NCBI GenBank assembly: GCA_965209055.1
Contig: OZ242374.1
Coordinates: 2,784,001-2,848,000, forward strand
DNA: 64,000 nucleotides
Source of the DNA: Acidobacteriota bacterium
GTDB lineage: Bacteria > Acidobacteriota > UBA6911 > RPQK01 > JAJDTT01
Reading direction: 5' to 3'
Under the pieces are notes generated by a model. It was not told where the DNA came from. It did no database searches and saw only the letters and a list, made by a program, of their open reading frames with translations. Both the position numbers and the translations under genes were made by a program. Positions 26,273 through 48,683 of the stretch are shown here, one piece after another. Within the stretch, counting starts at the first letter, position 1. Each line of letters starts with the position of its first letter.

Positions 26273-26390
26273 GGCCGGCTGCACGCGCGGAGAAAAGAAG
26301 AAGTGGGGGTAGGAAATCCGTCGCTCGGTCCAAATGATCTACGATCTAGATCCTTAATTATCAACCGGTTATCCCAAATATCCCCTCCAT

Positions 26391-27476
26391 TCATTGTCCC
26401 TTCATTCCGACCCGTTGCCTGTTTGTTGCCTGTTGCGTTTGTGAGTCTTCGTTAGCCTGTGCCTCTCGAATGCTCTGGAGCGCATGCGAACTGACGTAGC
26501 CCGCGTAGCGCATCGTCGTGCTGATCGATGAGTGTCCCATCAGCTTCTGCACCGTTCTCACGTCCACACCCTGCATCAGCCAATGGCTACAGCGGAATCG
26601 CCTCAGATCGTGAAACCCAACCTTCAACCCCACCCGCTCGGCAGCGCGACGTAGAGACTTGTCTGGATTCACCCATCTTGTCCCGGTCCGGCTGTTGACG
26701 AACACATACGGTGTGTTCAGGTAACGAACCAGCCCCGCCAGATATCGGGCGGCGTACTTCGAGAGCGGAATCTCTCTCGGTTCGTCGTCCTTGGTGAACT
26801 CCACCCACAACATCCGGCGGCCCAAATCCACCCGACTCCATGTGAGCGACAATCCCTCTCCCTTGCGAATCCCCGTTTCACCGATCACTGCGATCATGGC
26901 TTGCAGGGAAGGGTTGTCCACCGCCTCGACCAGGTCGCGGAACTGTTGGACCGTCAAAGGCCGGAAGACCTTCTTGGGCTCCTTCAGTTTGGGGAATCGA
27001 ACCAGCGGATGCGTGTCCACTTCCCCGCACTCCAGCGCGTAGGAAAACAGCTTGCTGAGGGCCGCAATGTCTCGGTTCACCGTGGCTGGCTGGACCTGTC
27101 CCTTCCGTTTCGCGACGTAGCGGTGGAGGTCCTTGCGCTGGAACTCCTTCAGGGGAATGTTCCCCAGCATGGCGTTGAGGCTCTTGAACGAGAGTGCGTA
27201 GCGGCGCAAGCAGCGTAGACGAGGTTTGCAATACTCCTCGAAAAAACGCTCGTAGAAACTCCGGACCGTCCAGATCTTGCGTTTCCCACCGGCGAGTTCC
27301 TGCTTGAGCCGCTTCCAGGTGCCGTCCAGGATACTGGACTCGATTCGTGTTTGAAGCGCTTGCGCGCTCCGGTAGTTGGGGGCGTACATTCGGAGCCGAC
27401 CGGATCCGTTCGGCCAGTACTTGCTGACGACGTACCGTCGTCTCCCCCGGCGATCCTTCACCTTATAGATGCCCAT
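26391..27476 (-). CDS. int: Tyrosine recombinase/integrase of E1
   Basis: ATVNRDIAAL, ETGIRKGE (R), TKDDEPR (K), FHDLRR (HxxR), LMGHSS (H), TMRY (Y). Confidence 0.95.
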   Translation of the reverse strand: MGIYKVKDRRGRRRYVVSKYWPNGSGRLRMYAPNYRSAQALQTRIESSILDGTWKRLKQELAGGKRKIWTVRSFYERFFEEYCKPRLRCLRRYALSFKSLNAMLGNIPLKEFQRKDLHRYVAKRKGQVQPATVNRDIAALSKLFSYALECGEVDTHPLVRFPKLKEPKKVFRPLTVQQFRDLVEAVDNPSLQAMIAVIGETGIRKGEGLSLTWSRVDLGRRMLWVEFTKDDEPREIPLSKYAARYLAGLVRYLNTPYVFVNSRTGTRWVNPDKSLRRAAERVGLKVGFHDLRRFRCSHWLMQGVDVRTVQKLMGHSSISTTMRYAGYVSSHALQSIREAQANEDSQTQQATNRQRVGMKGQ

Positions 27477-27723
27477 GCATCTCCTCCTTTCTGGATCCGG
27501 GTTCTTCGCCGTGGGGCGAATCGTACCACGGCTCCAGAGAAACGGAGTAGGTGTTCAAATCCTCCAAGGCAAAGCCGCGGCGGCGGCGTCCAGTGGTATC
27601 GAGTACAACTCTTGCTTTGATGATGTTCAGATCGGCGTATTTGCGAATCGTGCCGATGGCCTTATCGCGGAAATCATCCCTAAATTTCTCCGATTCCCGC
27701 GTGTCCGGCGCGTGCCGGTTCAT
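27463..27723 (-). CDS. Putative excisionase (winged-HTH/MerR-like), possibly truncated at the N-terminus
   Basis: GTIRKYADLNIIKARV...GRRRRGFALEDLNTY; overlaps the int start. Confidence 0.55.
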   Translation of the reverse strand: MNRHAPDTRESEKFRDDFRDKAIGTIRKYADLNIIKARVVLDTTGRRRRGFALEDLNTYSVSLEPWYDSPHGEEPGSRKEEMHGHL

Positions 27724-27796
27724 AGGCTTCAGTCGGCAGCGGAACTCTCATCCCTCCTTCTCTGGGTGTCTGCCCCTCATGGGATACTGGTGAACT

Positions 27797-29425
27797 ATGG
27801 CATCCAACACTCTGTACTATGGCGACAATTTGGATATTCTCCGGCGCTACCTGCGGGACAAAAGCGTTGACCTCGTCTACCTAGATCCTCCTTTCAAAAG
27901 CAACCAGACCTACAACGTCCTGTTTCAAGAGAAAGACGGATCACAGTCGGCTTCCCAGATTAAGGCGTTCGAGGACACGTGGCAGTGGGACGAAACTGCG
28001 GCCAGGGCCTATCAAGAGACGGTAGAAACTGGCGGCAGAGTAGCCGAGGCATTAATCGCCTTCAGGAAGTTCATGGGGACCAACGACATGTTGGCCTACC
28101 TGTCGATGATGGCACCTCGTCTCTTGGAACTTCGAAGGGTGCTGAAACTGACGGGGAGTCTATACCTGCACTGCGACCCAACGGCGAGCCATTCTTTAAA
28201 ACTCTTGCTCGATGCCGTCTTCGGACCAGAACGTTTCTTGAGCGAAATTGTGTGGAAACGCACGAGCGCCCACAGCAGTGCGAAGCGATACGGACCTGTG
28301 CATGACGTGATCTTATTCTATGGGAAAACGAACAAGTACAAGTGGAATCGAGTCTTTCAGGAATACGACACTGATTACATAGAAACATTCTTCGATCAGA
28401 CTGACCCGGATGGCAGACGGTGGAAGCGGGCCGATATGACCGGCGCAGGCATCCGATATGGCGAAACAGGTCTGCCATGGCGCGGGATTGACGTCACGGC
28501 AAAGGGACGGCATTGGAGATCACCCCCGTCTACGCTAGATGAACTTGACCGAAAGGATCGTGTTCACTGGCCAAAGAAGAAGGGCGGGATGCCTCGATTG
28601 AAGCAATACCCGGAAGACTCGCCAGGCGTTCCCTTGCAAGACGTATGGACGGACATTCGTCCATTGCACAATCTCGCTGCCGAACGTCTGGGCTACCCGA
28701 CGCAAAAGCCTCAATTGTTGCTTGATCGAATTATTCTTTCGAGTACTGACGAGGGCGAAATTGTGCTCGACCCCTTCTGTGGTTGCGGGACGACCATTGC
28801 GGCGGCTCAGAAACTCGATAGACGCTGGATCGGGATCGACATCACCCATCTAGCCATCTCTCTGATTCGTCATCGACTCCAGGATTCCTTCGGCAAGAAC
28901 TGTCGATTTGACGTCATCGGTGAACCGATCAGTCTCCAAGATGCCGCCACTCTAGCGGGGCAGGACCCCTATCAGTTTCAGTGGTGGGCTCTCGGCTTGG
29001 CCGGTGCTCGTCCCATTGAGCAGAAAAAAGGAGCCGACCAGGGTATTGATGGTCGGCTCTATTTCCATGACGAGGGCCGGAATGGGAAGACGAAGCAGAT
29101 CATCTTCTCGGTGAAGGCCGGACACGTCACAGTGTCCCAGATCCGTGACCTCGTGGGTGTTGTGAACCGTGAGAAGGCCCAGATAGGAGTCTTCCTGTCC
29201 CTGAATCCTCCGACCGCACCGATGCGTCGAGAAGCAGCCTCGGCAGGTTTCTACAAATCTCCATGGGGGAATCACCCTCGCATTCAACTACTCACGATTG
29301 AGGATCTCTTGGGCGGAATGAGCGTGGATTACCCCCAAGCCGCCGACGTGACATTCAAGCGAGCAAAGCGAGTAAGACCCACTTCATCGAAGAAGCAGAA
29401 TCACCTGCCGATGAAGCCTGACTGA
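27797..29425 (+). CDS. N4/N6 DNA methyltransferase (beta class) with a C-terminal Mrr-like nuclease domain
   Basis: YYGDNL, VYLDPPF, GYPTQKP, VLDPFCGCGTT; C-terminal DQGIDG...SVKAG. Confidence 0.88.
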   Translation: MASNTLYYGDNLDILRRYLRDKSVDLVYLDPPFKSNQTYNVLFQEKDGSQSASQIKAFEDTWQWDETAARAYQETVETGGRVAEALIAFRKFMGTNDMLAYLSMMAPRLLELRRVLKLTGSLYLHCDPTASHSLKLLLDAVFGPERFLSEIVWKRTSAHSSAKRYGPVHDVILFYGKTNKYKWNRVFQEYDTDYIETFFDQTDPDGRRWKRADMTGAGIRYGETGLPWRGIDVTAKGRHWRSPPSTLDELDRKDRVHWPKKKGGMPRLKQYPEDSPGVPLQDVWTDIRPLHNLAAERLGYPTQKPQLLLDRIILSSTDEGEIVLDPFCGCGTTIAAAQKLDRRWIGIDITHLAISLIRHRLQDSFGKNCRFDVIGEPISLQDAATLAGQDPYQFQWWALGLAGARPIEQKKGADQGIDGRLYFHDEGRNGKTKQIIFSVKAGHVTVSQIRDLVGVVNREKAQIGVFLSLNPPTAPMRREAASAGFYKSPWGNHPRIQLLTIEDLLGGMSVDYPQAADVTFKRAKRVRPTSSKKQNHLPMKPD

Positions 29426-29463
29426 GCCACTTTTGTATCCTTGGCTTGGGGGCAGAAAGAAGC

Positions 29464-30363
29464 ATGTGCGACGAGCTTACGGATTCGCTGAGTAACTGGG
29501 AATCCTATAGTACGATCATCCGCAATTTGGGTCTGGTTATCGCAGCGGGAATTGCTCTGCCCCTTGCCATATGGCGCAGCAGGATAGCTGAACGCCAAGC
29601 CGAAACAGCGCAGCGTGGGCTTTTGAACGAGCGCTATCAGAAATGCTCGGAAATGCTGGGCAGTGAGAAACTCCCGGTCCGGCTCGGCGGCTTGTATGCT
29701 CTCGAACGCCTCTCCGGGGAACACCCAGAGCAATACCACATCGAGGTCATGCGCCTATTCTGCGCGTTCGCTCGTCATCCGGTCGGGAAATCCGTTGAGA
29801 ACATTGCTCTGACAAACGGCGGCATCCTAACGGATGACGCTCAATTTGCTAGCGGCTCTGAGGAAGCTGCCAAAGAGATTGCTGCGGAAAGAGGGGAAGA
29901 ACATGATCATCGGCAATGGGTGCGCGAAGACGTGCAGGCCGTCATGGACTTGCTCCGCAGACGCTCAGAGAAACGTATCGAGCTTGAACGGGACGCCAAT
30001 TTCAGACTGGACCTACGCGGCGTCCACCTTCGTTATGGATCTCTTGCAAAGATAAACCTTGATGGGGCGTTCCTCATGAAAACCGACCTATCTAACGCGA
30101 TCCTGTCCGGTGCGTCTCTCGTAGACGCGGACCTGTCAGGCTCTAACCTTGAGAACGCCAATCTTGATGGGACCAATCTGTCTGGCACCCGATTCGCCGA
30201 GCTCGACGAAGCGGATCCCCGTAGTAGGCCTCCCGCGACCAACTTAACCCAAAAGCAACTTGATGGGGCGTTTGCATCTCCAGACAAGCCGCCACGTTTG
30301 AAAAATTGCATCGATGCGACGACCGACAAGCAGTTGGTCTGGCGCGGGCACCATTCAGACTAG
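29464..30363 (+). CDS. Pentapeptide-repeat protein with an N-terminal TM segment
   Basis: ERYQKCSEMLGS...RLGGLYALERL; repeats LSNAILSGASLVDADLSGSNLENANLDGTNLSG. Confidence 0.85.
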   Translation: MCDELTDSLSNWESYSTIIRNLGLVIAAGIALPLAIWRSRIAERQAETAQRGLLNERYQKCSEMLGSEKLPVRLGGLYALERLSGEHPEQYHIEVMRLFCAFARHPVGKSVENIALTNGGILTDDAQFASGSEEAAKEIAAERGEEHDHRQWVREDVQAVMDLLRRRSEKRIELERDANFRLDLRGVHLRYGSLAKINLDGAFLMKTDLSNAILSGASLVDADLSGSNLENANLDGTNLSGTRFAELDEADPRSRPPATNLTQKQLDGAFASPDKPPRLKNCIDATTDKQLVWRGHHSD

Positions 30364-30599
30364 TAGAGAGGCTGCTTGAGAGCGTCTGAAATCCCGTAGG
30401 CGAAGGCAAGTATACGCCTCCAGATGTTTGTCCCCGTCATGCTGCGGTCCCGTTGTCCCACGGGAGGACTCCCAAGCGCTCAGCGCTCCCCGCTGTGGGT
30501 GCTAGTCCCTCATGGGAAACTGACAACATTAACCCTTCCAAGAAGCAGAAGATCGAGTACGGGAAGATGAAGGCCGCGTTCGGGTGGAACGCCTGGCAG

Positions 30600-30850
30600 T
30601 TACTACCGCCGCAGTCCTTCCGCCATTGGACCTCCGCTCGCCAGATCGATCATTTGGTCACGGGCCGCAAGGCGGAACTGGACCTCGGTTGGGTGGCCCG
30701 GCTACGGGCGCTGTCTACTCTACCGCGCACCAACCCACGCCGACGGAAGGAGTACAAGCGGGTCAATGGGCCATTCACGCACTATGTGATCGCGGGTGGC
30801 GGCAACCGTTTCCCGTACGGAAATCTTCCCCTGTTGCTTGTGGCATGCGT
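30600..30850 (+). pseudogene. Degenerate plasmid RepA (RepA_C/IncW-like) fragment
   Basis: LPRTNPRRRKEYKRVNGPFTHYVIAGGGNRFPYGNLPLLL resembles the RepA_C N-terminal LPY(G)xxPRL region; truncated. Confidence 0.6.
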
Positions 30851-30945
30851 CTTCGGCAACCAAGAAAGTAAATCCCGGCCGGACCAAGCAGCGTCGCGAT
30901 CCATGAGTTCTAGGGCATGCACGGTCTGGCACTCGATGGGACTAA

Positions 30946-32134
30946 GGAAGGTCTGATTAAGTCGAGTCAGCGTTCTGCACGATAATTCTTCCATCATCAC
31001 TGCATGGAGGATAGATGATGTCGCAACGAACGTTCGCAGATCTGGAATACGACGGCAAGAAGCGGGTGACCCGTCGGGAGAGATTTCTGGCCCGGATGGA
31101 CCGGTTGATTCCATGGGAGCAGTTGGAAGCCCGGATTCGGCCCGTTTACCCGAAAGCGGGACGGGGACGGCGTCCCTACCCGCTCTCGACGATGCTTCGG
31201 ATCCACTGCGTGCAGCTGTTTTACAACCTGAGCGATCCGGGGATGGAGGATCTGCTCTATGAGGTGGAGTCGGTGCGGCGGTTCGTGGGCCTGAAGCTCA
31301 CGGGGCCGCTGCCGGACGAGACGACGATTCTGAAATTCCGTCATCGGCTGGAGGAGCATGGTCTGGGGGAGGCGCTGTTCGAGGAGATCGGTTCTCACCT
31401 GCAGCGGCAAGGCCTGCGGCTGAGCCGGGGGACGATCGTGGACGCGAGTATCCTGGCGGCGCCTTCCTCGACCAAGAACAGGGAGGGGGCGCGGGACCCG
31501 GAGATGCATCAGACGAAGAAGGGAAAACAGTGGTATTTCGGAATGAAGGCCCACCTGGGGGTGGACGCCCAGACGGGGGTGGCGCACACGGTGGTGACGG
31601 CGCCGGCTAACGAGCATGACGTGACGCGAGCCGGTGAGTTGCTGCACGGCTCGGAGTCTCAAGTTTGGGGGGATTCGGGATACCAGGGAGTGGGAAAGCG
31701 GTCGGAGAATCGAGATCGGCCGGTGGATTGGCAGGTGATGATGAAGCCGGGGAAGCGTTGGCGGCTGCCACCGGAGAGTGAGGCGGCGTTGGCCGAGCGG
31801 CGCAAAGCGTCGGTTCGGGCCAAGGCAGAACATGTATTCGGGTACCTGAAACGGCATTTCGGCTACGCGAAGGTGCGCTACCGGGGGCTGGCGAAAAACA
31901 CCCAACGGATCTATTTGCTGGTGGGGTTCGCCAATCTGATGATCGCCGAGCGCTCTGGCGTGAACGCCTGATCCGGGCGCGGGAGAGGTGCGTCGAGATT
32001 CGGGGAATCAGTCTGAGAATGGGGGCACCCAGAGCCTTGCCAGGGTGGTACTCCTCATAATGAAGGTTTGGACACCGCAAAGCCGAAACAATAACGGCTC
32101 TCACGTCCCTTGAATCGACTTGTTCAGACCTTCC
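30946..32134 (+). mobile_element. IS5-family insertion sequence, intact
   Basis: TIRs GGAAGGTCTGATTAAGTC and GACTTGTTCAGACCTTCC; CTAA target duplication at 30942-30945 and 32135-32138. Confidence 0.95.
31015..31971 (+). CDS. IS5-family DDE transposase
   Basis: PDETTILKFRH, IVDAS, RDPEMHQTKKGKQWYFGMKAH, WGDSGYQG, KASVRAKAEH, VRYRGLAKN. Confidence 0.95.
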   Translation: MMSQRTFADLEYDGKKRVTRRERFLARMDRLIPWEQLEARIRPVYPKAGRGRRPYPLSTMLRIHCVQLFYNLSDPGMEDLLYEVESVRRFVGLKLTGPLPDETTILKFRHRLEEHGLGEALFEEIGSHLQRQGLRLSRGTIVDASILAAPSSTKNREGARDPEMHQTKKGKQWYFGMKAHLGVDAQTGVAHTVVTAPANEHDVTRAGELLHGSESQVWGDSGYQGVGKRSENRDRPVDWQVMMKPGKRWRLPPESEAALAERRKASVRAKAEHVFGYLKRHFGYAKVRYRGLAKNTQRIYLLVGFANLMIAERSGVNA

Positions 32135-32142
32135 CTAAGTGC

Positions 32143-34428
32143 CTAGGCCCAGCGTTGTCTGACATATCCGACAAGATCGGCCCCTTCAAGGATCCGGGTC
32201 GAGTTGTTCACCCGAACGAAGAAGGCCCGGTCACGTTTGGAGACCTTGGCATAGATCGGCTCAGGAGATGGGGTCACGTGTACCATGGCGACTTGCACGC
32301 CATCGACAGCCTGCAACTGAATCTTCGCCATCGTGGAAGCAAGTGGTCCGAGCGAGCGCTCGATCAGGTTTGTGAGTGAGTTCACATACCGGTCCCCGTC
32401 CATGTTCTTCATGTCCAGGTCCGGTTGGATGCCGAGGATCTCGCCGTCATCCGCAATGCCGACCGCGAGAATGCCACCTCCGGCGTTCAGGAAGCCCGCG
32501 ATGGTCTTGAGCACGGACTCCGTGATTACTCTCTCCGGTACGTTCGGCTTGTAGCTGTAGTAGGCAGACGACTTGAACTCGACCCGCTCGGTTTCCATTT
32601 CGGCGAGGAGATCGTCAATGGACCATGCGTGGCCACCAGGCGGCAGCGGCAGCGGTTCCTCCTCCTCGGGAGGCTCGCCGGTCCGGAGCCTGTTGAATGC
32701 CGCTCGCACGACATCAGCGATGAGCACCCGCCGTTGCTGAAGGAACTCCCGATAATCCATCTGTTCCCAACCCTCCGGCAGCGCATGCCAGAACCGTGCT
32801 CGTTCTCGCTGCCGCGCCGTAAGCTTGGCGAAGAGGGGAGGGAAATACTCACTTGGCCGTGAGTCGCCGATCTCCGCGTTGTCGGGCCATTCGACGAAGG
32901 CGTAGTTGGCGATCTGATTTCGCTGTACTGTGCGATCGATGCCAATCCGTGTCAGGTACGCTTTGGGAAAAAGATGGTGACGCTCGACGGCCGAGCGAGG
33001 AGCGTGCGTCGATGGATCCAAAAGCTCACTCAATTGCAGCGGGGAAAACAGCGGCTGCGCATTGAGGAGAACAAGGCTTGCGTGGTATCCGAACACCGTC
33101 GGACCGAAGGCTGAGGAAGTCTCAAGCGAACTGGGGAGTTGGATCGTCCAATAGTCCATGGTGAGCGTCGTGTCGATGATCCCGTTCAGCATTGCCACAA
33201 ACTCATCACCGGACCTCGCCTCGGCGACACGGCGGAGATCCTGCTCAACTCGGCTCTCGAAGTTGCCCGTGTATCGGCCAGTAAGTGAGGTCATGAAGAA
33301 CCATTGAGCGATGGCTTCGCGAAGGGTCCTGCGGTTGATCCGGTAGTCTCGATGGCCAATCAGGTACATCAGGTAGGAGAACATCAGATTGTTCTCCGAA
33401 CTGATCATGGCTCGGCTTCGGTAGCCGGCCCGACGGACTGCCTTAAGAAACTCGTGCCAATTAGTCAGCGAAAGGGTCTCCGCCTGAGCCTCCCGCAATG
33501 TGGCGAACTGCTTCTCCCGGATCTGAGCCGAAATCTCGCCGGTCTCAAGGTCTTTGCCCCGAAGCACCTGATAGACGTATCGAAGGCGGGCGCGCCGGAG
33601 GGCAAGTCCCGAAACCACGCGTAGCATCTGGTCCGCGGACGGGTCGATGAACGGATTTGCGGGAGACGGCCCAGGAGGCCGGAGCCTAGCGTTCCGGGCG
33701 AATTTCTCCAGTTGCTTGCGGCCCTCCTCCCACCAGACGGACATCAGTGTGAGAATGAAGTCGGCTTGGCCGAGTCTATCCCCCTTGCTATTGATGCGCA
33801 CGAAGATGTCCGCGACCTGTTCCTCACCTGCCGTTGAAGCCACCTCCATGGCCTTAAAAGGATAGTTTCGGAGGTTGTAGAGTCTTTCAATGGCCGATTC
33901 AATGCGGACGCGCCGGTCCTCGCCAAGATCACCCTTGCTTTCTTCCAGGCGCATGAGGAACTCCCGCACCTTCTTTAGCAAACTGCCGCCAGCCCATAGA
34001 ATCGAGATGTCGGCGATGAACTCCGGGTTCCTTACCACTGCGGCATCGGCTACCTCGAAGCTGCCGTCTCGGGGGCGAAACGCGATACGAATCCGCGAAG
34101 CAGTGTAATCCTCACGGAGCACTTCGCTCCCCGTGAGCACGGCGTAGAGGCTGGTGAGCCGCTGCTGGCCATCCACGATCATGAGGCGCGGCGCGGCCTC
34201 GTGGGCATGCGTGCCGATTCGGCGGGCACCCATCTCGGCACCGGTTGCCCAGAAGATCAGGTGGCCAACGGGGAAGCCACGGTACATCGAGTCGAAGAGG
34301 TCTCGGACCTTGGTCGCCTTCCAGCGGAAGGGTCGCTGGATGTCGGGCAGAGCAATCTCGCCCCTACCGATCGCCTCGACCAAGGCAGACAGGCTGTACG
34401 AGCTGTCGTTAAAGACTGTGATGGCCAT
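32143..34428 (-). CDS. GmrSD-like (DUF262 plus HNH-like DUF1524) protein with a C-terminal AlbA_2/Schlafen domain
   Basis: PDIQR, DGQQR, FVRINSKG; ERHHLFPK...NQIAN; ETERVEFKSS...IAGFLNAGGGILAVGIADDG...FFVRVNNST. Confidence 0.85.
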   Translation of the reverse strand: MAITVFNDSSYSLSALVEAIGRGEIALPDIQRPFRWKATKVRDLFDSMYRGFPVGHLIFWATGAEMGARRIGTHAHEAAPRLMIVDGQQRLTSLYAVLTGSEVLREDYTASRIRIAFRPRDGSFEVADAAVVRNPEFIADISILWAGGSLLKKVREFLMRLEESKGDLGEDRRVRIESAIERLYNLRNYPFKAMEVASTAGEEQVADIFVRINSKGDRLGQADFILTLMSVWWEEGRKQLEKFARNARLRPPGPSPANPFIDPSADQMLRVVSGLALRRARLRYVYQVLRGKDLETGEISAQIREKQFATLREAQAETLSLTNWHEFLKAVRRAGYRSRAMISSENNLMFSYLMYLIGHRDYRINRRTLREAIAQWFFMTSLTGRYTGNFESRVEQDLRRVAEARSGDEFVAMLNGIIDTTLTMDYWTIQLPSSLETSSAFGPTVFGYHASLVLLNAQPLFSPLQLSELLDPSTHAPRSAVERHHLFPKAYLTRIGIDRTVQRNQIANYAFVEWPDNAEIGDSRPSEYFPPLFAKLTARQRERARFWHALPEGWEQMDYREFLQQRRVLIADVVRAAFNRLRTGEPPEEEEPLPLPPGGHAWSIDDLLAEMETERVEFKSSAYYSYKPNVPERVITESVLKTIAGFLNAGGGILAVGIADDGEILGIQPDLDMKNMDGDRYVNSLTNLIERSLGPLASTMAKIQLQAVDGVQVAMVHVTPSPEPIYAKVSKRDRAFFVRVNNSTRILEGADLVGYVRQRWA

Positions 34429-35011
34429 GTGGATATGCGGGCAATGGTTTTCTGAGGCGCTGACCGGGATGCGGAGTGCGGTGCAGAAGTGTGCAGGCTG
34501 CCTCGGTTGGTCTGCAACTCCTTTTTGACAAACACATCCGGCTATGCGAGCGGATCGTACTCCGATGCACGATGTCTTGCCAGAACCCCCAGTCCTGAAA
34601 GATCAGCATTCAGTATAGAGGCACCACTCGGGAATGAAAAACCAAGAGAGTTGAGAGACTTCCTACGGCTTCGCCGGATGGTGCGCTTCGCCGACGACGA
34701 TCTAACGGAACCGGGTCGGCCACGTAAGCAGGATCCTTCGATCTATCGACCTGCGGTTCATTTGGACATAGACGCGTCAGACGGACAAGCAATTTTGCCC
34801 ACCGAGCAGGACGGCGATATCGGGAGCCATAGAGTGCCAAATCCGGGTCACCGTATACCCGGCACGATCGTGAACGGCGATCAGGTCCAGCACCGGATGG
34901 TCTCCAGGCCGGAATATGGGATCGTATTCGGCTCGCCAGACAATGTCCGCCTAATCCGCCGGAATGATACCTGCATAACGCCACTTCATGGCTTCATGGG
35001 ATCATCTTACT

Positions 35012-35348
35012 GCCTTCCCGCCAGGGATAATTTGGACGGGAGCGACCCCCCCAGGGGGTGCTGCGCAAATGTGAATTGCGCAACACCCCCGCGCCCGCAC
35101 CGGGCAGGAAAAAGGGGGGGTCGCTCCCGTCCACCTCCATTTTCCCCGTGCGGCCACCCGGTGGCCAGAAATGGGGCCGTAACTGACTGAAAGGAAAAAA
35201 GATCGGGGACAGCGCGTTTGTGAATCACCGGGACCGCTTTTTGTGAATCCACCCCCCTTGTCCCATTCACATCCCGGATCGGGCGCGAGACCCCCTTGAG
35301 GCACAGCCGAAACGAGCCTCCAAAGGCCCTTGCGATTGCCGAGTGCGT
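35012..35348. other. Conserved structured non-coding block, copy 1 (candidate origin or ncRNA)
   Basis: Homologous to 46391-46726; 20-bp perfect inverted repeat (35033-35052 and 35114-35133) enclosing a second hairpin. Confidence 0.75.
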
Positions 35349-35537
35349 TCACCGTCAATCACGACCTGGAAGGAGCGACTTTCCGCCGCTGGTTGCAACT
35401 CGACCGCCCGCTTCAGTGCTGCCGTCACCCCTCCGTAGGGGTTGAGCAGGGCCGTATCCCCCGTTGGAACGGCGCGTTTGAATCGGACGGCGACAATCGT
35501 GTAGCTTGATGAGCCGATTGAGATATCGGACGCAGAA

Positions 35538-36593
35538 ATGACTGAGGAACTGTGTATCTGGGCGGTCGACGGGTCGGGGACGGTGGCGCCCCTGTCACCG
35601 CTCAAGCAGATGCAAACCGAGTTGGGCTTGGAGGAGCTTTTGGTTCGCAACCCGGAAATGCTCGAACCGGGCCTCCGTCTCGTGGGACGACAGACGCCCA
35701 CCCAAACCGGTTGGCTGGATCTGCTCGCCGTTGACGCGGACGGCCGTCTGGTCGTCTACGAGTTGAAGCGAGGGATGCTTGCCCGCGAGGCTGTGACCCA
35801 AGTCTTGGACTACGCTTCGGACTTGGACGCCATGAGTACCGGCGACCTCGCGAAGCACATTTCCGAACGTAGCGGGAACGACGGTATCGAACAGATCGAT
35901 GACTTCGAGCAATGGTACGCCGACAACTTCGGCGGGGACGACCTGTCACGCCTCCTGCCGCCCCGCATGGTACTCGTCGGATTGGGTGTGGACGCTGTAG
36001 CCGAACGGATGGCACGATTCATTTCTGCTGGGCCAGTGGATATTTCCGTGGTGACATTCCACGGGTTTCAACGTGAAGGGGAGCGACTCCTAGCTCGACA
36101 ACTGGAGGTGGAGTCAGGACGAACAGAAATCATCCGAAAGCGTCCTTCCGCAACCACCGCCGAAAAGCGTCGGGCTCTGGAAAAATACCTGGTTGACAAT
36201 GGATACAAGGAACTCTTTGACCGAGTCCATGCCGACCTTCGCCGACATCTGCCAGAGCAGGGCGTTTGGGAGCAGGTAGGGAGCACGAGCGTCGGATTTG
36301 TGCTCAGCGAGCCTGGGGATTCCAACGTCACGAGAACCTACTTTGGCGTGCAAGCCGGATATCTGGGAACGGAAGTGTGCAGCGTCAGCGTATTGCCGCA
36401 GGCGATTACATGGGGCGGTGACGGTGCATTTGCCAGGCTCAGTGGTTCCGTCAATCTCGAAGAATGGACACACGGTGGCTATGCTCTCTCCTTCAAGACC
36501 CTGGAAGAGTGGGACGAGATTCGACCAGAAGTGCTTGAGTACGTACGCGCCGTCTCGGCGAATCGCACGAACGTGGAAGGGCCAAAAAACTGA
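35538..36593 (+). CDS. NucS/EndoMS-like PD-(D/E)xK endonuclease domain protein
   Basis: ELGLEELL, LVGRQ, LDLLAVD, VVYELKRG, QVLDYA. Confidence 0.8.
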   Translation: MTEELCIWAVDGSGTVAPLSPLKQMQTELGLEELLVRNPEMLEPGLRLVGRQTPTQTGWLDLLAVDADGRLVVYELKRGMLAREAVTQVLDYASDLDAMSTGDLAKHISERSGNDGIEQIDDFEQWYADNFGGDDLSRLLPPRMVLVGLGVDAVAERMARFISAGPVDISVVTFHGFQREGERLLARQLEVESGRTEIIRKRPSATTAEKRRALEKYLVDNGYKELFDRVHADLRRHLPEQGVWEQVGSTSVGFVLSEPGDSNVTRTYFGVQAGYLGTEVCSVSVLPQAITWGGDGAFARLSGSVNLEEWTHGGYALSFKTLEEWDEIRPEVLEYVRAVSANRTNVEGPKN

Positions 36594-36860
36594 GTCCGAC
36601 TGCCCGACCTTCGTCACAGCGGATCTGGTGACGGCGGGCCTATATCGCAGAGGAAATAGTACCAGACCGGCATCGCAGGCTCGAATACTGCTGCCTGTTT
36701 GTTGCCTGTTCAGGATGTCAAACATAGGGAGTCAACCACGCTACCGATTCGGCGAAGAACCCGGTAATCCATTGAAAACGTTAATGTTTGGTAGTTGTTG
36801 ACTGTGGGGCTATCGGGATAGGAAAACCCCCACTCCTACCATGCGGAGAGGAGGATTGTC

Positions 36861-38198: not shown

Positions 38199-38267
38199 CT
38201 GGGGGGGGACTGTTAGTCCCCCCGTGCCCCGGATTCGGGGGTAGGAAAACCCCCGCTCCGCTCCTAT
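38195..38267. repeat. Intact REP doublet containing both target hairpin types
   Basis: GGGGGGACTGTTAGTCCCCCC (38203-38223) and CGGGGGTAGGAAAACCCCCG (38236-38255), with GTAG/ATAG feet. Confidence 0.8.
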
Positions 38268-38335
38268 CTTTCGCCAGGGCTTTTGGGTCCCATGGCGGCG
38301 TATTGCTCGAAGAATCGCTGGCAAGGAGGCAACAG

Positions 38336-40932: not shown

Positions 40933-40983
40933 CAGCCCGGCGGCCGCGCCGGTCGAGCCGCAATGGCCGCCGGCATCTGGAAC

Positions 40984-43900: not shown

Positions 43901-44073
43901 CCAGTCTGGGGTTCCTGCCCATGGCGCTGGCAACTTCCACCGGCGCCGAAGTTCAGCGCCCGCTGGCCACCGTGGTGATCGGCGGACTGGCCAGCTCCAC
44001 CATCCTGACGCTGCTGTTGCTGCCGGCTCTCTACAGTTGGTTCCTGCCCCGGAACAGGAGGGGGGACTGTTAG
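40984..44073 (+). CDS. czcA: Heavy-metal RND efflux pump (CzcA/CusA family)
   Basis: IDAFPDLT, SLGAIDFGMIVD, RLRPVLMT, GAEVQRPLATVVIGG. Confidence 0.93.
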   Translation: MLKRIIDYHLDHRWVVLIGLAMLLAAGLNALYQIPIDAFPDLTNNQVTVITEAPGMAPVEVEQLLTFPIESSMMGLPSTEEVRSISKLGLSIVTVVFADGVDNYFARQLVNERLNEARGRIPDGLEPALGPVATAFGEVYQYTLEGEGYSAMELKTLHDWEIKYQLRAVPGVADISTWGGYTRQYEIEVDPYQLRAHGLTLRDVFERVRDNNDNFGGGFVEHASEQYTVRGLGRVGSEQDLETIVLEAHEGTAVYLRDVAEVKVGHFPRQGAVTRDGRGETVSGTVIMLRGQNSKTVIERVKEALEGVRRSLPEGVNIVPFYDQSVVIDGTIRTVRNNLLLGGALVVAILFLFLGNFRAALLVAAVIPLSMLFAFIGMRWFGITANLMSLGAIDFGMIVDGAVIMIENHVRRLKGRPDPDVPLTGAESVELVRSAAHQVSRPILTGVGIIIAVYVPILSLQGLEGRMYRPMAFTVCAALLGSLVLTLALLPAASRLLLGRRPKKSREPVMDRARAVYGRVVNFALDHRALVVSGGFLLVAAPLGSLRFIGTEFMPRLDEGSVLVQVLRLPSISLSESVDIGLEVEKTLLEFPEVTGTVGKTGRPDLATEAMGIYETDLYVDLKPREQWRTADTKEGLLEAMAAELSKIPGVVYNFTQPMAMRLDETISGVEADVAVKIFGPDEGVLDRTADEVLRVIGQVRGAADAQKQVFSGAAEWQVVVDRDELARYGLNISDVRDVVQAAVGGKGVTEFIEGRRRFQVAVRLPETYRRDRAALGSILLAAPEGEQVPLDRVAEIRRASGPEVVHREDSQRRIVVQCNVRGRDMGSFVAEAQHRIQADLDLPTGYYITWGGQFENQQRAMQRLMLVLPAVLLVIFMLLYVTFRSAKQSFLVLLIVPFATVGGIAALWLREMNLNVSASIGFIAVFGVAVLDGLVMVSTTNSLLERGRPLRQAIVEGAVTRLRPVLMTSLVASLGFLPMALATSTGAEVQRPLATVVIGGLASSTILTLLLLPALYSWFLPRNRRGDC

Positions 44074-44103
44074 TCCGGTGCTCTGTCCAACTGAGCTACG
44101 GGA
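44067..44103 (-). other. tRNA 5'-half remnant in the att arm (not a complete tRNA)
   Basis: Minus strand reads CCCGTAGCTCAGTTGGACAGAGCACCGGA-CTAACAG (D-arm plus anticodon stem 5' strand). A degenerate equivalent lies at 26310-26346. Confidence 0.7.
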
Positions 44104-44125
44104 TTGATCCTTTCCTTTCAACAGG

Positions 44126-45232
44126 TTATCCCGATGCTCCTCTCAAATCGTTCGTCCTATTTCCTCCCCGTTGCCTGTTTGTTGCCGGTCTCATTTGTGA
44201 GTCTTCGGTAGCCTGTGCCTCCCGAATGCATGCGAGTGCATGAGAACTGACGTAACCCGCGTAGCGCATGGTCGTGCTGATCGACGAGTGCCCCATCAGC
44301 TTCTGCACCGTCCTCACGTCCACCCCCTGCATCAGCCAATGGCTGCAGCGGAATCGTCTCAGGTCGTGAAATCCGACCTTCAACCCCACCCGCTCGGCGG
44401 CCCGGCGCAACGGCTTGTCCGGATTCACCCATCTCGTGCCGGTCCGGATGTTGACGAAGACGTATGGCGTGTTCAGGTAACGAACCAGCCCGACCAGGTA
44501 TCCGGTGGCGTACTTCGAGAGCGGAATCTCCCTCGGCTCGTCGTCCTTGGTGAACTCCACCCATAGCAGCCTCCGGACCAGGTCCACCCGTTTCCAGGTG
44601 AGCGACAACGCTTCGCCTTTCCGTATCCCCGTCTCGCCGATCACCGCAACCATGGCTTGCAGGTAAGGGTTGTCCATCGCCTCGACCAGGTCGCGGAACT
44701 GTTGAACCGTCAAAGGCCGGAAGACCTTCTTGGGTTCTTTGAGTTTGGGGAACCGAACCAGCGGGTGCGTGTCCACTTCCCCGCACTCCAGCGCGTAGGA
44801 AAACAGCTTGCTGATGGCGGCAATGTCGCGGTTCACCGTGGCCGGCTGCACTTGCTTCTTCCTCCGGGCGACGTAGCGGTACAGGTCCTTGCGTTGGAAC
44901 TCCTTCAGGGGAATGTTCCCCAGCACGGCGTTGAGGCTCTTGAACGAGAGCGCGTAGCGACGGCGGGAGCGCATGCGAGGTTTGCAATACTCCTCGAAGA
45001 AACGCTCGTAGAAGCTCCGTACCGTCCAGACGGTGCGATTCCCGCCGGCGAGCTCCTCCTTGAGCTGCTTCCAGGTGCCGTCCAGGATGCTGGACTCGAT
45101 TCGTGTTTGAAGCGCCTGCGCGCTCCGGTAGTTGGGGGCGTACATTCGGAGCCGACCGGATCCGTTCGGCCAGTACTTGCTGACGACGTACCGTCGTCTC
45201 CCCCGGCGATCCTTCACCTTGTAGATGCCCAT
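44126..45232 (-). CDS. int: Tyrosine recombinase/integrase of E2
   Basis: Starts MGIYKVKD like the E1 integrase; highly similar, with the R-K-HxxR-H-Y residues intact. Confidence 0.95.
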   Translation of the reverse strand: MGIYKVKDRRGRRRYVVSKYWPNGSGRLRMYAPNYRSAQALQTRIESSILDGTWKQLKEELAGGNRTVWTVRSFYERFFEEYCKPRMRSRRRYALSFKSLNAVLGNIPLKEFQRKDLYRYVARRKKQVQPATVNRDIAAISKLFSYALECGEVDTHPLVRFPKLKEPKKVFRPLTVQQFRDLVEAMDNPYLQAMVAVIGETGIRKGEALSLTWKRVDLVRRLLWVEFTKDDEPREIPLSKYATGYLVGLVRYLNTPYVFVNIRTGTRWVNPDKPLRRAAERVGLKVGFHDLRRFRCSHWLMQGVDVRTVQKLMGHSSISTTMRYAGYVSSHALACIREAQATEDSQMRPATNRQRGGNRTNDLRGASG

Positions 45233-45821
45233 GCATCTCCTCCTTTCTGGATCCGGGTTCTTCGCCGTGGGGCGAATCGTACCACGGCTCCAGAGAACGG
45301 ACCGGTGGGACCTGTCCCCCCAGACCCCCCAGTGGCGCCAGAACCCGCGCCGGATCACCATTCCGGCGCTGAACCGGGCGCTTTTATTTGTCGCGTCCCA
45401 TAAGAATGGGTCCCTCGCGCAGGATTCCCGCCGCGTCTCTCGCAGGCTTCCCGGTCGGAGCAAATCTGTCCCCGGCCGAGGTGTCGCTTGAAACCCCCTC
45501 AGGCGGGAATTCTCGTGAGATCGTGAAAAAACAAGCCCGCCATCGGGCCTGTGTTGGCCCGCCGCAGCCGGACGAAGGGTTAGGTATAGGCCCCGGAGCG
45601 TCGTCCAGAAGCCTCCGGCGCGGCGCGGGGAAACAGGCAATTCTCAGCACGGGCGCAGCCCGTTAGGTAGTCCGTGAGATCCGGAGCTCGGGCGATCGGC
45701 AAGACGCGATCCTGCTTCCGGAACTCAGCCTGATGGTGAAGACGGCTGACGTCATCCGATCTTCGTGAGTAGAATCTGATGGAAGTGGGTCAATCGAAAG
45801 CAGGCCAAGGAGGCAAAGCAG

Positions 45822-45950
45822 ATGCGCTCAGACCACACCCCCCCCACCATGCTCAGGATGGTCGTTGCCGTCGTCATCGGACTGATTGTGTTCGAGGTGG
45901 TGGCGGCGCTGTATCAGGTCGTCGCCGGGTTCTTTCTGGCGGCTTTCTGA
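45822..45950 (+). CDS. Small hydrophobic protein, 42 aa
   Basis: AAGGAGG RBS; MRSDHTPPTMLRMVVAVVIGLIVFEVVAALYQVVAGFFLAAF. Confidence 0.45.
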   Translation: MRSDHTPPTMLRMVVAVVIGLIVFEVVAALYQVVAGFFLAAF

Positions 45951-46390
45951 CGTCTTGCCGGGTTTTCGGCCCCAAGAGCAATCCAAAATCACGGCGATGG
46001 TAGCCGGTCGGGCCAAGGGTTCCACCTCGATGGCCAGGCCGACATGGAAAGCGTCCTCGGTTCTGGCGATCCAGGGGAGAAAGTAAATTGCACCGGTGGG
46101 GCTGGGGGCTTGAGAGATCGGTGGCAACACTGAACTGGAGGCAAAACGACGCACCCTGTGGGAAATCTCTGATTTTCCACAGGGTGGGGAGGTTCGTTGA
46201 GACGAAGCTCGATCCCTCTTTGGAGAGTTCTTTGGTGGGTATGTGTCTCTTCGCATCCGGGGGGTTCGGGGGGGCTGGCCCCACCGCTACGAGCGTCAGG
46301 TTCACGGTCGGCTTGGTGTGCCGAACGGGGTTCAGGCGCACCAGGGGGGTCTGGGGGGACAGGTCCACCCGGTCCTCGGTCTTCTTCCGG

Positions 46391-46726
46391 GCCTTCCCGC
46401 AGGGAGAATTGAGACGGGAGCGACCCCCCCAGGGGGTGTTGCGCAAATGTGAATTGCGCAACGCCCCCGCGCCCGCACCGGGCAGCAAAAAGGGGGGGTC
46501 GCTCCCGTCCACCTCCGATTTCCCCGAGCGGCCACCCTGTGGCCGGCAATATGGCCGTAACTGATTGAGACGACAAAGGATCAGGAAAGCGGTTTTGTGA
46601 ATCACCGGGACTGCTTTTTGTGAATCCACCCCCCGTGTCCCATTCACACTCCCGGATCGGGCGCGAGACCCTCTTTTCGCCCACCCGAAACAAGTCGCCG
46701 TAAACCTTTGCGACTGCCAAGTGCGG
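46391..46726. other. Conserved structured non-coding block, copy 2
   Basis: Homologous to 35012-35348 with the same nested inverted repeats. Confidence 0.75.
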
Positions 46727-47361
46727 AACTGTCTCGGCGACCGTCCCGCAGCGTTCGCAATACTGCTCACCTGGCCCAACCTGTTAGTCTCGGCCTCCAT
46801 GTGTCCATCCTGCGAGCCGGCTCGGTGGAGGACGAACAATTGTCGGTACAGTCCGTTACCAGGGATGCTCCACTGACTCGGCCAAGGCTGCATTGAAGAG
46901 GGAGGAGCGCGACCGTGAGGGGACCGAACGGAGGGGTTCAAGTAGTCTTCTCCGGGGGAGAGTTTGCAATCTACCGGGCGGAGTCGGTGAACTGGGACCG
47001 GCGGACCGGAACATTGACCTTGGAGCATTCCGGCCGATCCTCCGTGTTCGAGCATTGGGGCGCGAGCCTCCAGGTCATCGCCTGGCGGTGGGTTGATGGG
47101 TCGATTCAGGACCGGACCTGGAGAGTGAAGACCGAATACGGCGGGCGCCTCTAAGGCACGATAAGTTGATCTTATTGGACCCTGTGCCGTCCTAGAGTGG
47201 CTTGGGCAGCTTCTCTCGGACCACGTTACCGGATGGCTCAGGGCGGATCCCCGCCCCCGGGAGAACCGGAGAAACCCGCTTCTTTCCCTCAGGATGTCCA
47301 TTAATTTCAGTGAACGGACCTCCTTGGTGGCTCCCCCTTCCGAATCTCTGAGCGTGGGACT

Positions 47362-47877
47362 CTAAGGAGTTGCGGGAGCTTTGTAGAGCACGGTGTCCTC
47401 GGTTTCCGTCGCGGCATCGACAGCGATCCCTAGGCCGACTCCAATTCCTGTTAAAAGAGCACCGAGTATCAACCCCTGAAAGGCGGTATCGGTCTTTGTT
47501 GACTCTTCAACTGTGGCAATTCCAATCAAGGTCAGTCCACCGCCGACTGCGGCTCCAACAGCGGCTCCTTTCCATGCTCCGTCTCCCAACCCATCCTTGG
47601 AAGGAAGGTTAACTGTCTGGATGTCCGTTTTCGGAATCACTGCACGGCCGGCGGGGTTCAGGAGTTCCAGGGCTGACGCCGACAGGCCTCGGAATTGGCC
47701 GTGGATTCGATCCCCGTTTTTGAGTTCCACCGTGATGGATGATGCCATTTCCAAGGCGGAGACCTTCTCCCAGCGGCCGGGGATCACCTCCGCCCGTGCT
47801 GGCATGGAGGCCAATCCGGCAAGAATCAAGGCAAGTAATCGAATCCGGCATGTCTTCATCGTTTGGGTTTTCTTCAT
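47362..47877 (-). CDS. Hypothetical exported protein with a glycine-zipper TM region
   Basis: AAGGAGG RBS, signal peptide ending ARA, GAAVGAAVGGG motif. Confidence 0.7.
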   Translation of the reverse strand: MKKTQTMKTCRIRLLALILAGLASMPARAEVIPGRWEKVSALEMASSITVELKNGDRIHGQFRGLSASALELLNPAGRAVIPKTDIQTVNLPSKDGLGDGAWKGAAVGAAVGGGLTLIGIATVEESTKTDTAFQGLILGALLTGIGVGLGIAVDAATETEDTVLYKAPATP

Positions 47878-48381
47878 GGCACCTCCTTCTACCTTGGAGT
47901 AACATCGCTTCTTGTTAGCGACTCCTCATCAGAAAATGTGATTTTTTCGTCGGAAGTGGCTCACCGAGGCGAGCAGACGGTGATCGATTCCAGGTAGTCC
48001 CCGACGAAGAACGGCATGGAGCCGCCAGGTGGGGAACAGCGAGTCGATTTTCAGGATCTGGCTATGCTGCCTGTATGTTGCCTGTTCAGCACGTCAAATA
48101 TTGGCAGTCAAGCACTATACCGATTGGGCGAAGAACCCGGTAAATAAATGAAAACGTTAATGTTCGGTAGTCTTTGACTTTCGAACAGTTGGGACTGTTA
48201 GTCCCCCCGTCTTCATTGCCTGCTTCGGTGTCGACCGTACCCGAACCGGAAGAGCGGGGGCAGAAAAACCCCCGCTCTTGGGCCATGCTGGTTTTTCTCT
48301 GGACTTCGCCGACCCGCGGCCGGTGGGGCAATGGTGAGAAAAGCAGTGGCGATCCTTGTGTGTGGGCGTCCTCTTTCGTCT

Positions 48382-48453
48382 TCAGCCGACAGGTTCCGAT
48401 CCTCGCGGAAAATCCAGATCCGCCCACCACACCTCTCCGCGCGCAACTACCAT
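48382..48453 (-). pseudogene. Truncated MazF/PemK-like toxin
   Basis: MVVARGEVWWADLDFPRGSEPVG* matches the typical PemK N-terminus, stops after 23 aa and overlaps the antitoxin stop. Confidence 0.75.
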
Positions 48454-48683
48454 TCGCTGGAACTGACGCTCCGAGCCTGGGCGGCTCTCAACAAGGGATC
48501 GAGGCCGCTCGTTTCATTGGCGAGCACCTCGTTTAGCTTTGATGTCACATCCTCGTCACGGTGTTTCGCTAAGTATTCAGAAACTGCGGTGGCGTACAAT
48601 TCGCTCCTCGACACTCCTTGCCGCTCCGCCAACTCGTTGGCCGAAAGGAACAGTTCTTCCGGTAGTGAGATTGCTGTTTTCAT
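48447..48683 (-). CDS. Ribbon-helix-helix antitoxin (ChpI/MazE-like)
   Basis: MKTAISLPEELF...GVSRSELYATAVSEYL, directly upstream of the mazF remnant. Confidence 0.8.
   Translation of the reverse strand: MKTAISLPEELFLSANELAERQGVSRSELYATAVSEYLAKHRDEDVTSKLNEVLANETSGLDPLLRAAQARSVSSSEW

Follow-up and report, generated by a model that had tools for sequence, protein, structure and literature searches.

Site-specific integrases are regarded as one-address enzymes, and hairpins of the repetitive extragenic palindrome (REP) type as targets of insertion sequences (IS). The REP-targeting IS employ transposases of the IS110 or IS3 family; IS1397 inserts into REP, and the bridge-RNA elements represented by IS621 reportedly target REP as well. 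Specific insertion into REP has been described, in addition, for ISPpu9, ISPpu10, ISPsy8, ISPa11, ISRm19 and ISRm22 (PMC1525189). Among the tyrosine integrases, those of the Islander class 'A' use the tRNA anticodon loop as their crossover site (Williams 2002, as cited in PMC4383910), and the Islander survey counts 2,083 islands with anticodon-centred sites, along with a 5' tRNA fragment in 159 of 3,919 islands versus a 3' fragment in 3,760 (PMC4383910). Here we analyze a 64,000-nucleotide stretch of an Acidobacteriota genome (contig OZ242374.1, positions 2,784,001 to 2,848,000; hereinafter the window) that contains two elements, E1 and E2, each encoding a tyrosine integrase and each inserted into a REP-like hairpin. 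The comparison of these elements with the rest of the genome and with related genomes indicates that they very probably represent a lineage of lambda-type integrase elements that ancestrally resided at the anticodon loop of tRNA-Arg(UCU/UCG) and moved to REP-like hairpins within a single genus of Acidobacteriota.

E1 spans, core to core, 10,516 bp (26310..36825 of the window), and E2, a near-minimal element, 4,135 bp (44067..48201); both sites lie between genes. The E1 core, TAGGAAA, is present at 26310..26316 (+, the attL overlap), where it is preceded by the hairpin half GTGGGGG, and again at 36819..36825 (+, the attR overlap), where it is followed by the hairpin half ACCCCCAC; when joined, the outer flanks form the perfect palindrome GTGGGGG-TAGGAAA-ACCCCCAC. 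The E2 core, CTGTTAG, occupies 44067..44073 (+) and 48195..48201 (+), and the joined flanks read GGGGGGA-CTGTTAG-TCCCCCC, again a perfect palindrome. The boundaries, the cores and the restoration of a clean palindrome by in silico excision of either element had been proposed in a first-pass annotation of this DNA, and the junctions map exactly where it had placed them. Tandem repeats of the GTTGCCTGTTT type (hereinafter arm-type repeats) are located 97 bp (E1) and 96 bp (E2) inside the left core and 108 bp inside both right cores, so that the matched geometry reported previously is reproduced by our recount. In E1, the left repeats, GTTGCCTGTTT GTTGCCTGTT, lie at 26414..26435 (+) and overlap the last codons of the integrase gene (encoding QATNRQ), and the right arm (36685..36818, +) carries tandem repeats at 36690-36711; in E2, the left repeats lie at 44170..44188 (+), and those of the right arm (48061..48194, +) at approximately 48066-48087. 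The two cores differ at 5 of 7 positions, and on the minus strand both element ends read ...CGGA-[7]-TCCC, as noted before. The same annotation described the integrases as near-identical and the element ends as homologous: homology is borne out, with 325/357 (91%) identical residues in the integrases and a column identity of 85% for the left ends and 80% for the right ends, whereas near-identity is too strong a description. Also as previously indicated, an intact, unoccupied hairpin of the E2 type and one of the E1 type are found side by side at 38203..38255. The anatomy of the two elements is far beyond chance and recurs in all 25 elements of the genome with resolvable junctions (see below).

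The E1 integrase (26391..27476, -; 361 aa) matches the Pfam Phage_integrase family with E = 1.9e-26 (93 bits against a cut-off of 27), and the E2 integrase (44126..45232, -) comprises 368 aa from the ATG aligned with the E1 start. In an alignment of 20 rows extending down to 34% identity, R204, K229, R292, H315 and Y324 are invariant and H289 is present in at least 90% of the rows. Pfam detected no arm-binding domain above the cut-off in the integrase. The AlphaFold2 model (pLDDT 85.4) consists of three N-terminal strands and a helix, followed by the helical and catalytic domains; the strands are predicted at residues 2-7, 13-20 and 27-32 and the helix at 35-51, with pLDDT of 79-88. A Foldseek search initiated with this model aligned it to full-length lambda Int (1z1b_A) over 350 columns with E = 6.5e-14, and also retrieved Tn1549 Int and XerA. 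Thus, the protein is predicted to possess a separate N-terminal arm-binding domain. Searches of phage and plasmid collections yielded no relative with more than 31% identity.

The source genome is a single-contig metagenome assembly (6,077,182 bp, 62.8% GC) assigned to Acidobacteriota, and the related public records are likewise labelled as Acidobacteriota metagenome-assembled genomes (MAGs); the host is an uncultured member of this phylum, possibly from a sponge or reef habitat, as hinted only by small word shares in sequencing runs. A tblastn search of the complete genome identified 26 full-length integrase copies with 88-100% identity and about eight fragments, and a BLAST search with the element ends located 28 left ends and 30 right ends. 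Each of the 26 integrases can be matched with a right end of its own, which delineates elements of 2.5-25 kb and leaves 4 right ends unpaired. In one of the 26, which runs across the start of the record, only the right end was mapped; the junction statistics therefore pertain to the other 25. In all 25, the core at attL is identical to that at attR and each copy abuts half of a GC-rich palindrome; the arm-type repeats are located 91-97 bp from the left core and 105-109 bp from the right core. The attP reads GGGA-[7]-TCC.

Written throughout in the E1 orientation, the cores of this genome fall into five classes: CTGTTAG (7 elements), CTAACAG (9 elements, including the 26th, counted from its right end only), which corresponds to the E2-type hairpin entered in the opposite orientation, TTGGAAA (5 elements, 4 of them in GGGCGA/TCGCCC stems and one in a GTGGGGG/ACCCCCAC stem), TAGGAAA (4 elements) and TTAGAAA (a single element). 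The left ends of relatives add six cores, each abutting a hairpin half, namely CAGGAAAG (8 nt), CTAGAAA, CTGGAAG, CTAAAAG, CTGAAAG and CAGGAAA; the right ends in one of the related genomes, G004, carry the cores seen at the relatives' left ends together with the further variants AGGAAAG, AGGGACG and CAGGAAGG. Cores known from one end only are assigned by position. Thus, at least 11 different cores are associated with near-identical integrases. One junction in G004 (L082, contig C1 at ~410.8 kb) joins a right arm directly to the core CTGGAAA and the latter to a tRNA-like left arm, an attP-like chromosomal arrangement as expected between two tandem elements.

The hairpins that harbor these elements form part of a broad family, with several hundred related extragenic palindromes. 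A whole-genome search for perfect hairpins with stems of 6 bp and loops of 7-8 nt revealed families of 79, 58, 51, 49 and at most 48 copies, with CGGCGG, GGGCGA or GGGGGA stems and loops that include TTAGGAAA and TTGGAAA; the stems of the target hairpins are perfectly paired, with no extrahelical bases. In this genome, the E2-type hairpin is intact in 7 and occupied in 16 instances, the E1-type hairpin is intact in 1 and occupied in 4, GGCGATTGGAAATCGCC is intact in 79 and occupied in 4, and GCGATTAGAAATCGC is intact in 15 and occupied in 1. The earlier proposal that such hairpins offer many landing sites holds only in part for this genome, with 1 intact exact hairpin left for the E1 core and 7 for the E2 core; other hairpin families have ~79 copies, and in G004 the E1 target is present in 275 copies. 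The comparison set consisted of eight genomes of the same genus (G001-G008). The 18-mer of the E1 target is found in 17 copies in G001, 14 in G002, 24 in G003, 275 in G004 and 6 in G008, and the 19-mer of the E2 target in 5 copies in G001 and 7 in G008; the control counts, obtained with reversed patterns, are 0. Given that G001 contains no integrase match at E <= 1e-30 and nevertheless carries 17 E1-type and 5 E2-type copies, the hairpins exist independently of the elements. G004, in turn, holds 14 integrase matches and 27 right ends.

The empty alleles predicted by the first-pass annotation were found in these relatives. The left and right flanks of E1 are contiguous in all eight genomes, and in six of these (G008, G001, G004, G002, G003 and G006) the intact hairpin GTGGGGGTAGGAAAACCCCCAC is located exactly at the E1 insertion point, twice in tandem in the case of G001; G007 and G005 have no hairpin at this position. 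At the E2 insertion point, the exact intact hairpin is present in G008, and G001 retains the CTGTTAG loop with a single changed base in the stem; five of the eight genomes contain a hairpin with a different loop (CATTCCTG), and G005 has none. The orthologues of the E2 target (window ~44060-44080) that we examined are L119, L120, L122, L123 and L125 versus L121 and L118. The hairpins therefore turn over quickly between sister species, as reflected in the different loops at the E2 point and in the single, doubled or absent hairpins at the E1 point. The gene upstream of E2, which encodes a protein of 1,036 aa (40963-44073), ends at a TAG inside the E2 core, and its orthologue in G008 is shorter by five codons, with a TAG immediately preceding the hairpin as its stop. 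A search for RAYT-like Y1 transposases (PF01797) gave two weak matches, with 30.8 and 23.6 bits at a cut-off of 23; they map to genome positions 1142970-1143203(-) and 3750831-3751106(-), the first directly beside the left end of an element.

The 45 nucleotides that separate the integrase stop codon from the core, read on the minus strand, resemble the 5' half of a tRNA. Local alignment of this arm with the 68 tRNAs called by ARAGORN in the genome, judged against shuffled sequences, identified tRNA-Arg(tct) as the best match in 23 of the 25 elements and tRNA-Arg(tcg) in 2, with scores of 19-29 compared with shuffle means of ~11 and a maximum of 17. The match covers index 4-32 of tRNA-Arg and the TCC after the loop, with agreement in at least 20 of 24 distinct arms at index 4-6, 9, 11-14, 18-25 and 30-32, and ends 3 bp past the loop, with 0-1 of the 24 arms matching at index 43-45. 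In E1, the decayed 5' half of tRNA-Arg (D arm and 5' anticodon stem; 26317..26350, -, read toward the core) scores 19 against tRNA-Arg(tct) (shuffle mean 11.1, maximum 16), and the corresponding sequence of E2 (44074..44105, -) scores 27 (shuffle maximum 16). The relic D-arm region reads GGACAGAGC, and several copies, among them that of E1, have a disrupted D stem. ARAGORN called no tRNA in the window, an Rfam scan of the E1 attL region gave no tRNA match, and that of the E2 attL gave only a truncated tRNA match (12.6 bits, E = 4), weak on its own. None of the 26 elements of this genome lies in a tRNA gene, all 25 resolved junctions abut hairpin halves, and the tRNA-Arg(UCU) gene at 307704-307778 is unoccupied; the opposite pattern, with most homologs in true tRNA genes and the hairpins as rare secondary sites, had been considered in the first-pass annotation and is not what this genome contains.

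In contrast, several relatives of these integrases do reside in tRNA-Arg genes. These are L036 (85% identity), from G003 of the same genus, L038 from G010 and L039 and L057 from G035 (72% identity; both are further relatives' genomes), and L017, a partial copy with 90% identity. All five loci display the same order and direction, namely the integrase gene, the arm-type repeats and a complete tRNA-Arg(tct or tcg) gene, and the anticodon loop of that gene occupies the position of the core in E1 and E2; the geometry matches that of E1 and E2. No right end of the tRNA-sited elements was detected within 20-40 kb; a whole-genome DNA search placed the right arm in G003 ~47 kb away, where it is followed by GGA-TTAGAAG and then by a displaced 5' half of the tRNA, which implies that crossover occurred at the anticodon loop and that the 5' half was contributed by the element. 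In G035, the 72% integrases are located at both tRNA-Arg(tct) and tRNA-Arg(tcg), accompanied by two right ends that do not match them in orientation, a pattern suggestive of an inversion between the two elements. At greater distances, three homologs with ~50% identity have the opposite, more common orientation, with a complete tRNA-Arg(tct) gene next to L042 and L044 and a tRNA-Arg(tct) fragment next to L043; homologs with ~35-45% identity are adjacent to tRNA-Leu, tRNA-Arg or tRNA-Asp. Altogether, 16 of the 20 loci scanned have an adjacent tRNA, with only a tRNA fragment in the case of L043 and L048.

A maximum likelihood tree of the integrases (quick search, SH-aLRT support only) was built from 46 rows, comprising the 26 copies from this genome, 12 REP-sited relatives, 5 tRNA-sited relatives and 3 outgroup sequences; the fragmentary loci L012, L014-L016 and L018-L028, the ~35-45% homologs L045-L053 and L060, and L040 and L041 were omitted. 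The rows with 72% identity from tRNA-Arg genes branch first (support 99), followed by L036 and then by a clade of 39 rows that includes every REP-sited row (support 82). Because the relatives with 85%, 72% and (partial) 90% identity reside in genuine tRNA-Arg genes, the targeting of REP is derived from the targeting of tRNA-Arg. The earlier idea of a tRNA-targeting lineage that switched to REP is thus sustained, both by the best match of the arm to tRNA-Arg and by the matching geometry of the 85% and 72% relatives in their tRNA-Arg genes.

The family has moved recently, as shown by exact twins at different hairpins. The twin of E1, at ~3.70 Mb, is 100% identical to it over the 10,516 bp, save for a 1,912-bp insertion in the twin, and occupies a different hairpin. 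The twin of E2, at ~0.78 Mb, is 100% identical over 2,978 bp and 97% identical over the first 1,158 bp (34 mismatches), and two further elements, e15 and e23, match each other at 100% identity over 2,776 bp. The contig depth over the unique cargo of E1, compared with that of the chromosomal flank, is 100 vs ~50, 36 vs ~20 and 45 vs ~22 in three sequencing runs, and this approximately twofold depth favors two real copies over an assembly artefact. The insertion in the E1 twin is a group II intron of 1,912 bp (RVT_1 and a weak GIIM match) that is found at the same point, between element positions 1158 and 1159, at approximately codon 3 of the integrase gene and in the sense orientation, in 3 of the 26 elements, namely those at ~3.71 Mb (the E1 twin), ~0.78 Mb (the E2 twin) and ~5.31 Mb (locus L155:1215-2714). 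The intron appears to home into the integrase gene.

These observations can be combined into a likely mechanism. The ancestral element targeted the 7-nt anticodon loop of tRNA-Arg and carried the 5' half of the tRNA. The N-terminal domain of the integrase is predicted to bind the tandem repeats of both arms, yielding an intasome, and the core-binding and catalytic domains would grip the inverted half-sites GGGA and TCC around the overlap in a double-stranded, lambda-like reaction. At the new sites, the GC-rich stem of the hairpin would stand in for the anticodon stem and supply the two inverted core-binding half-sites, and the 7-nt loop would be the overlap where the strands are exchanged, with a symmetric stem and an asymmetric loop as in the anticodon arm. 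Strand exchange would require matching overlaps, a property of the enzyme to which the 25 pairs of identical duplicated cores point; such a requirement would explain both this identity and the occurrence of each attP subfamily only in hairpins with its own loop. The overlap itself would not be read by the protein, so that a new 7-bp sequence in attP would re-address the element to another family of hairpins; given that the loop is the only asymmetric part of the site, inversion of the overlap (CTGTTAG to CTAACAG) would flip the direction of insertion in the same hairpin. New addresses might arise through mutation of the overlap or through excision following rare integration at an imperfect site, the latter being known from the lambda 'saf' site-affinity mutants. 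The tRNA half is now a decaying relic, and the integrase behaves like a multicopy transposon that ferries mostly defence genes. An overlap that is not read by the protein fits with the overlap promiscuity of the HK022 integrase (PMC7736782) and with the 7-bp strand-exchange region of mv4 Int, located between two 7-bp inverted repeats (10.1101/2023.11.06.565760).

In its broadest form, this scheme amounts to a naturally re-addressable system, in which a near-invariant scaffold of integrase and arms is combined with an exchangeable address, the overlap, that has been rewritten at least 11 times, including into its own reverse complement, and a one-site tRNA island has become a genome-wide, transposon-like carrier of defence genes, with hairpin loops as its only landing sites. 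We put forward this broader proposal tentatively and consider it somewhat less than an even bet. Passage of the elements through mismatched hairpins may also rewrite the loops of REP, which would help explain the different loops of orthologous hairpins.

Several observations weigh against the proposed history or complicate it. The genome is a MAG with an estimated contamination of 7.4%. The tRNA-sited L017, which covers 45% of the alignment columns, falls inside the REP clade, beside the TAGGAAA elements (support 80-90, unstarred), so that the switch may have happened more than once or may have been reversed, or else L017 may be misplaced; one enzyme may also serve either a tRNA or a REP site, depending on its attP. 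The core classes are scattered over the integrase tree, with 5 changes each for CTGTTAG and CTAACAG. Because the differences between E2 and its twin are confined to the first 1,158 bp, the elements recombine with each other, and this recombination blurs the history of core change. The target of E1 has an 8-nt loop and GGG/ACC half-sites, compared with GGA/TCC in attP, and hence recognition is looser than that of a simple mimic of the anticodon stem. No attB or attP joint was detected in Logan contigs of 4 runs compared over window 28500-48499, and the joints listed match other copies; these contigs drop rare variants, so that the absence of excision joints says little either way. Finally, no excisionase was recognised, Pfam being blank for the 4 small open reading frames (ORFs) of a minimal element and for one upstream of the E2 integrase gene, with the reservation that small directionality factors are often missed.

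The absence of excision joints and the mosaicism between elements, together with the three integrase genes interrupted by the intron, could be taken to mean that the copies are fossils, spread by segmental duplication or homologous recombination, with the palindromes deriving from a single old event. This scenario is hardly credible given that the 25 elements have 25 different flanks without common flanking DNA and a precise core duplication in each case, that twins with 100% identity are found at unrelated loci, and that all 26 integrase frames are open with intact catalytic residues; the intron is sense-oriented and could splice out. A different concern is the origin of the hairpins, which might have been made or spread by the elements as solo att scars instead of being pre-existing host repeats. 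In this genome, most of the E2-type hairpins (16 occupied, 7 empty) and E1-type hairpins (4 and 1) are indeed occupied, but the 17 E1-type and 5 E2-type copies in G001, a genome without an integrase match at E <= 1e-30, the 275 E1-type hairpins in G004 against 14 integrase matches, the several hundred related extragenic palindromes and the existence of orthologous empty sites all render such an origin highly improbable.

The remaining rival concerns the chemistry: the integrase could recognize the shape of a folded single-stranded or cruciform hairpin, as with integron attC or the XerCD/CTX attP, in place of duplex recombination of the lambda type. All targets are perfect hairpins with very different stems (GGGGGGA, GGGCGA, GTGGGGG) and loops, as such recognition would imply, and the integron integrase IntI4 is among the structural matches, at rank 15. 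However, a long conserved arm with tandem repeats is found at either end of the elements, their integrase has a predicted lambda-like N-terminal domain, their close relatives reside in ordinary tRNA genes with the standard signature of a displaced fragment, the NCBIfam integron-integrase model TIGR02249 gives 61 bits against a cut-off of 265, and the stems lack extrahelical bases. We therefore consider recognition by shape very unlikely and retain the descent from tRNA-Arg islands, with duplex recombination at the hairpins, as the preferred interpretation.

Apart from the junctions, the elements share a backbone that consists of the left arm with the integrase gene (~1.28 kb), a segment that we denote module M (335-435 bp) and the right arm (~160 bp), and this backbone makes up nearly all of the minimal elements of 2.7 kb. 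The module does not encode a protein and is conserved and strongly structured; it is located at 35011..35446 in E1 and at 46391..46725 in E2 (element positions 2327-2661). It was aligned in 20 of the elements of this genome, BLAST places a copy inside all 26, and it is nearly invariant between elements with different cores, unlike a guide RNA that covaries with the target. The module forms a long nested hairpin, and roughly half of its 65 BLAST matches in the genome fall outside the integrase elements; 16 of the 22 outside copies examined lie just 3' of a second, P4-like integrase of ~431 aa (a representative is L029:2103-3398(-)). Among 59 copies (54 distinct), several predicted pairs are changed on both sides, with CG in 40, AU in 6 and UA in 3 copies at one pair, and GC in 43 and CG in 6 at another. 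Rfam returned only sub-threshold hairpin look-alikes for module M (plastid 3'UTR, microRNAs), and ARAGORN miscalls two of its copies as tRNA-Val. Module M might serve as a shared site for transfer or packaging, or function as an RNA. A conserved short stretch that follows the module was considered as a remnant of the P4-like integrase, and this candidate was rejected because BLASTP found no similarity.

The only conserved gene of the elements is that of the tyrosine recombinase, in contrast to the DEDD or DDE transposase of the REP-targeting IS; the remaining genes are variable cargo. E1 carries an N6/N4 DNA methyltransferase fused to a Mrr-like nuclease domain (27797..29425, +), a pentapeptide-repeat protein (29446..30363, +), a protein with GmrSD_N and Schlafen/AlbA_2 domains that is HEC-05-like according to PADLOC (32143..34428, -), and a NucS_C-like nuclease, the PADLOC candidate PDC-S11 (35538..36593, +). 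It also contains a multicopy IS (30972..32383, +) with a DDE_Tnp_1/DUF772 transposase ORF (31015-31971); its limits are taken from the contig break points, contigs ending at 30971 and beginning at 32384, with a depth 4-8 times that of the neighbouring sequence. E2 has no recognisable cargo, and comparison of its ORFs with the protein atlas and NCBIfam gave no match; its ORF of 475 aa (45874-47301) is probably not a gene because it overlaps the conserved non-coding module M (~46391-46725) and matches no family. For the other elements, we scanned 76 of the 172 ORFs called in 18 elements, after ORFs shorter than 200 aa or with GC2 >=0.56 had been dropped; this census excludes E1, E2, the twins e1, e13, e23 and e25, the minimal elements e9, e10 and e15, and e24. 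Counted by ORF, the Pfam matches are HSDR_N, ResIII and Phage_integrase (5 each), N6_Mtase, HsdM_N, SWI2_SNF2, Eco57I and DDE_Tnp_1 (4 each), Methylase_S (3), and NotI, AbiTii, Cas1 and RVT_1 (1 each). Thus, as judged by these domain matches, the cargo is dominated by predicted restriction-modification and other defence genes. In addition, one of the six tRNA-Leu(taa) calls in the genome (2104898-2104985) is located inside element e5 (2095929-2106501), and another (477237) lies near leftover right ends and copies of module M; the extra tRNA-Leu genes may travel on mobile elements.

The lineage described here can be traced stepwise, from tRNA-Arg islands with 72-85% identical integrases, one of them in the same genus, to a family of 26 copies in hairpin loops, and so constitutes a natural experiment on how integrases gain new sites, how far the 7-bp overlap alone sets the address, and why anticodon stem-loops, with their symmetric stem and asymmetric 7-nt loop, are favored. 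By means of these elements, restriction-modification and other defence systems spread both within Acidobacteriota genomes and from one genome to another, and the compact scaffold of the elements, an integrase with two arms and a swappable 7-mer, suggests a possible basis for programmable insertion. In the literature searched, where the coverage of subscription journals was limited, we found no report of a family of tyrosine integrases with REP hairpins as attB. Both chemistry and parts are already known; the target class, the multicopy lifestyle, the natural series of overlaps and the traceable descent from tRNA-Arg elements are new.

In common with the Islander class 'A', of which the 72-85% identical relatives are ordinary tRNA-Arg members, these elements have an integrase gene beside att, a 7-nt overlap within a symmetric stem and a tRNA fragment in attP; in contrast to that class, the 26 elements reside in no tRNA gene, the 5' half they carry is decaying and restores nothing, and they are multicopy, with many cores. 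Like the REP-targeting IS, they insert specifically into extragenic palindromes, which serve as abundant harmless landing sites; those IS, however, possess transposases of their own, some with a guide RNA, and no cargo, whereas the elements described here combine a lambda-type integrase and arm sites with the attP overlap as the address and with up to ~25 kb of cargo. As in HK022, mv4 and the lambda saf mutants, site choice would be set by a 7-bp overlap that the protein does not read, but those cases are laboratory manipulations or rare secondary sites, whereas here the change appears to be natural and repeated, with at least 11 cores and the colonisation of families of repeats. Finally, similarly to integron integrases acting on attC, the enzyme is a tyrosine recombinase that uses small palindromes of variable sequence and gathers adaptive cargo; the integrons, in contrast, rely on folded single strands that contain extrahelical bases, and they lack arm sites.

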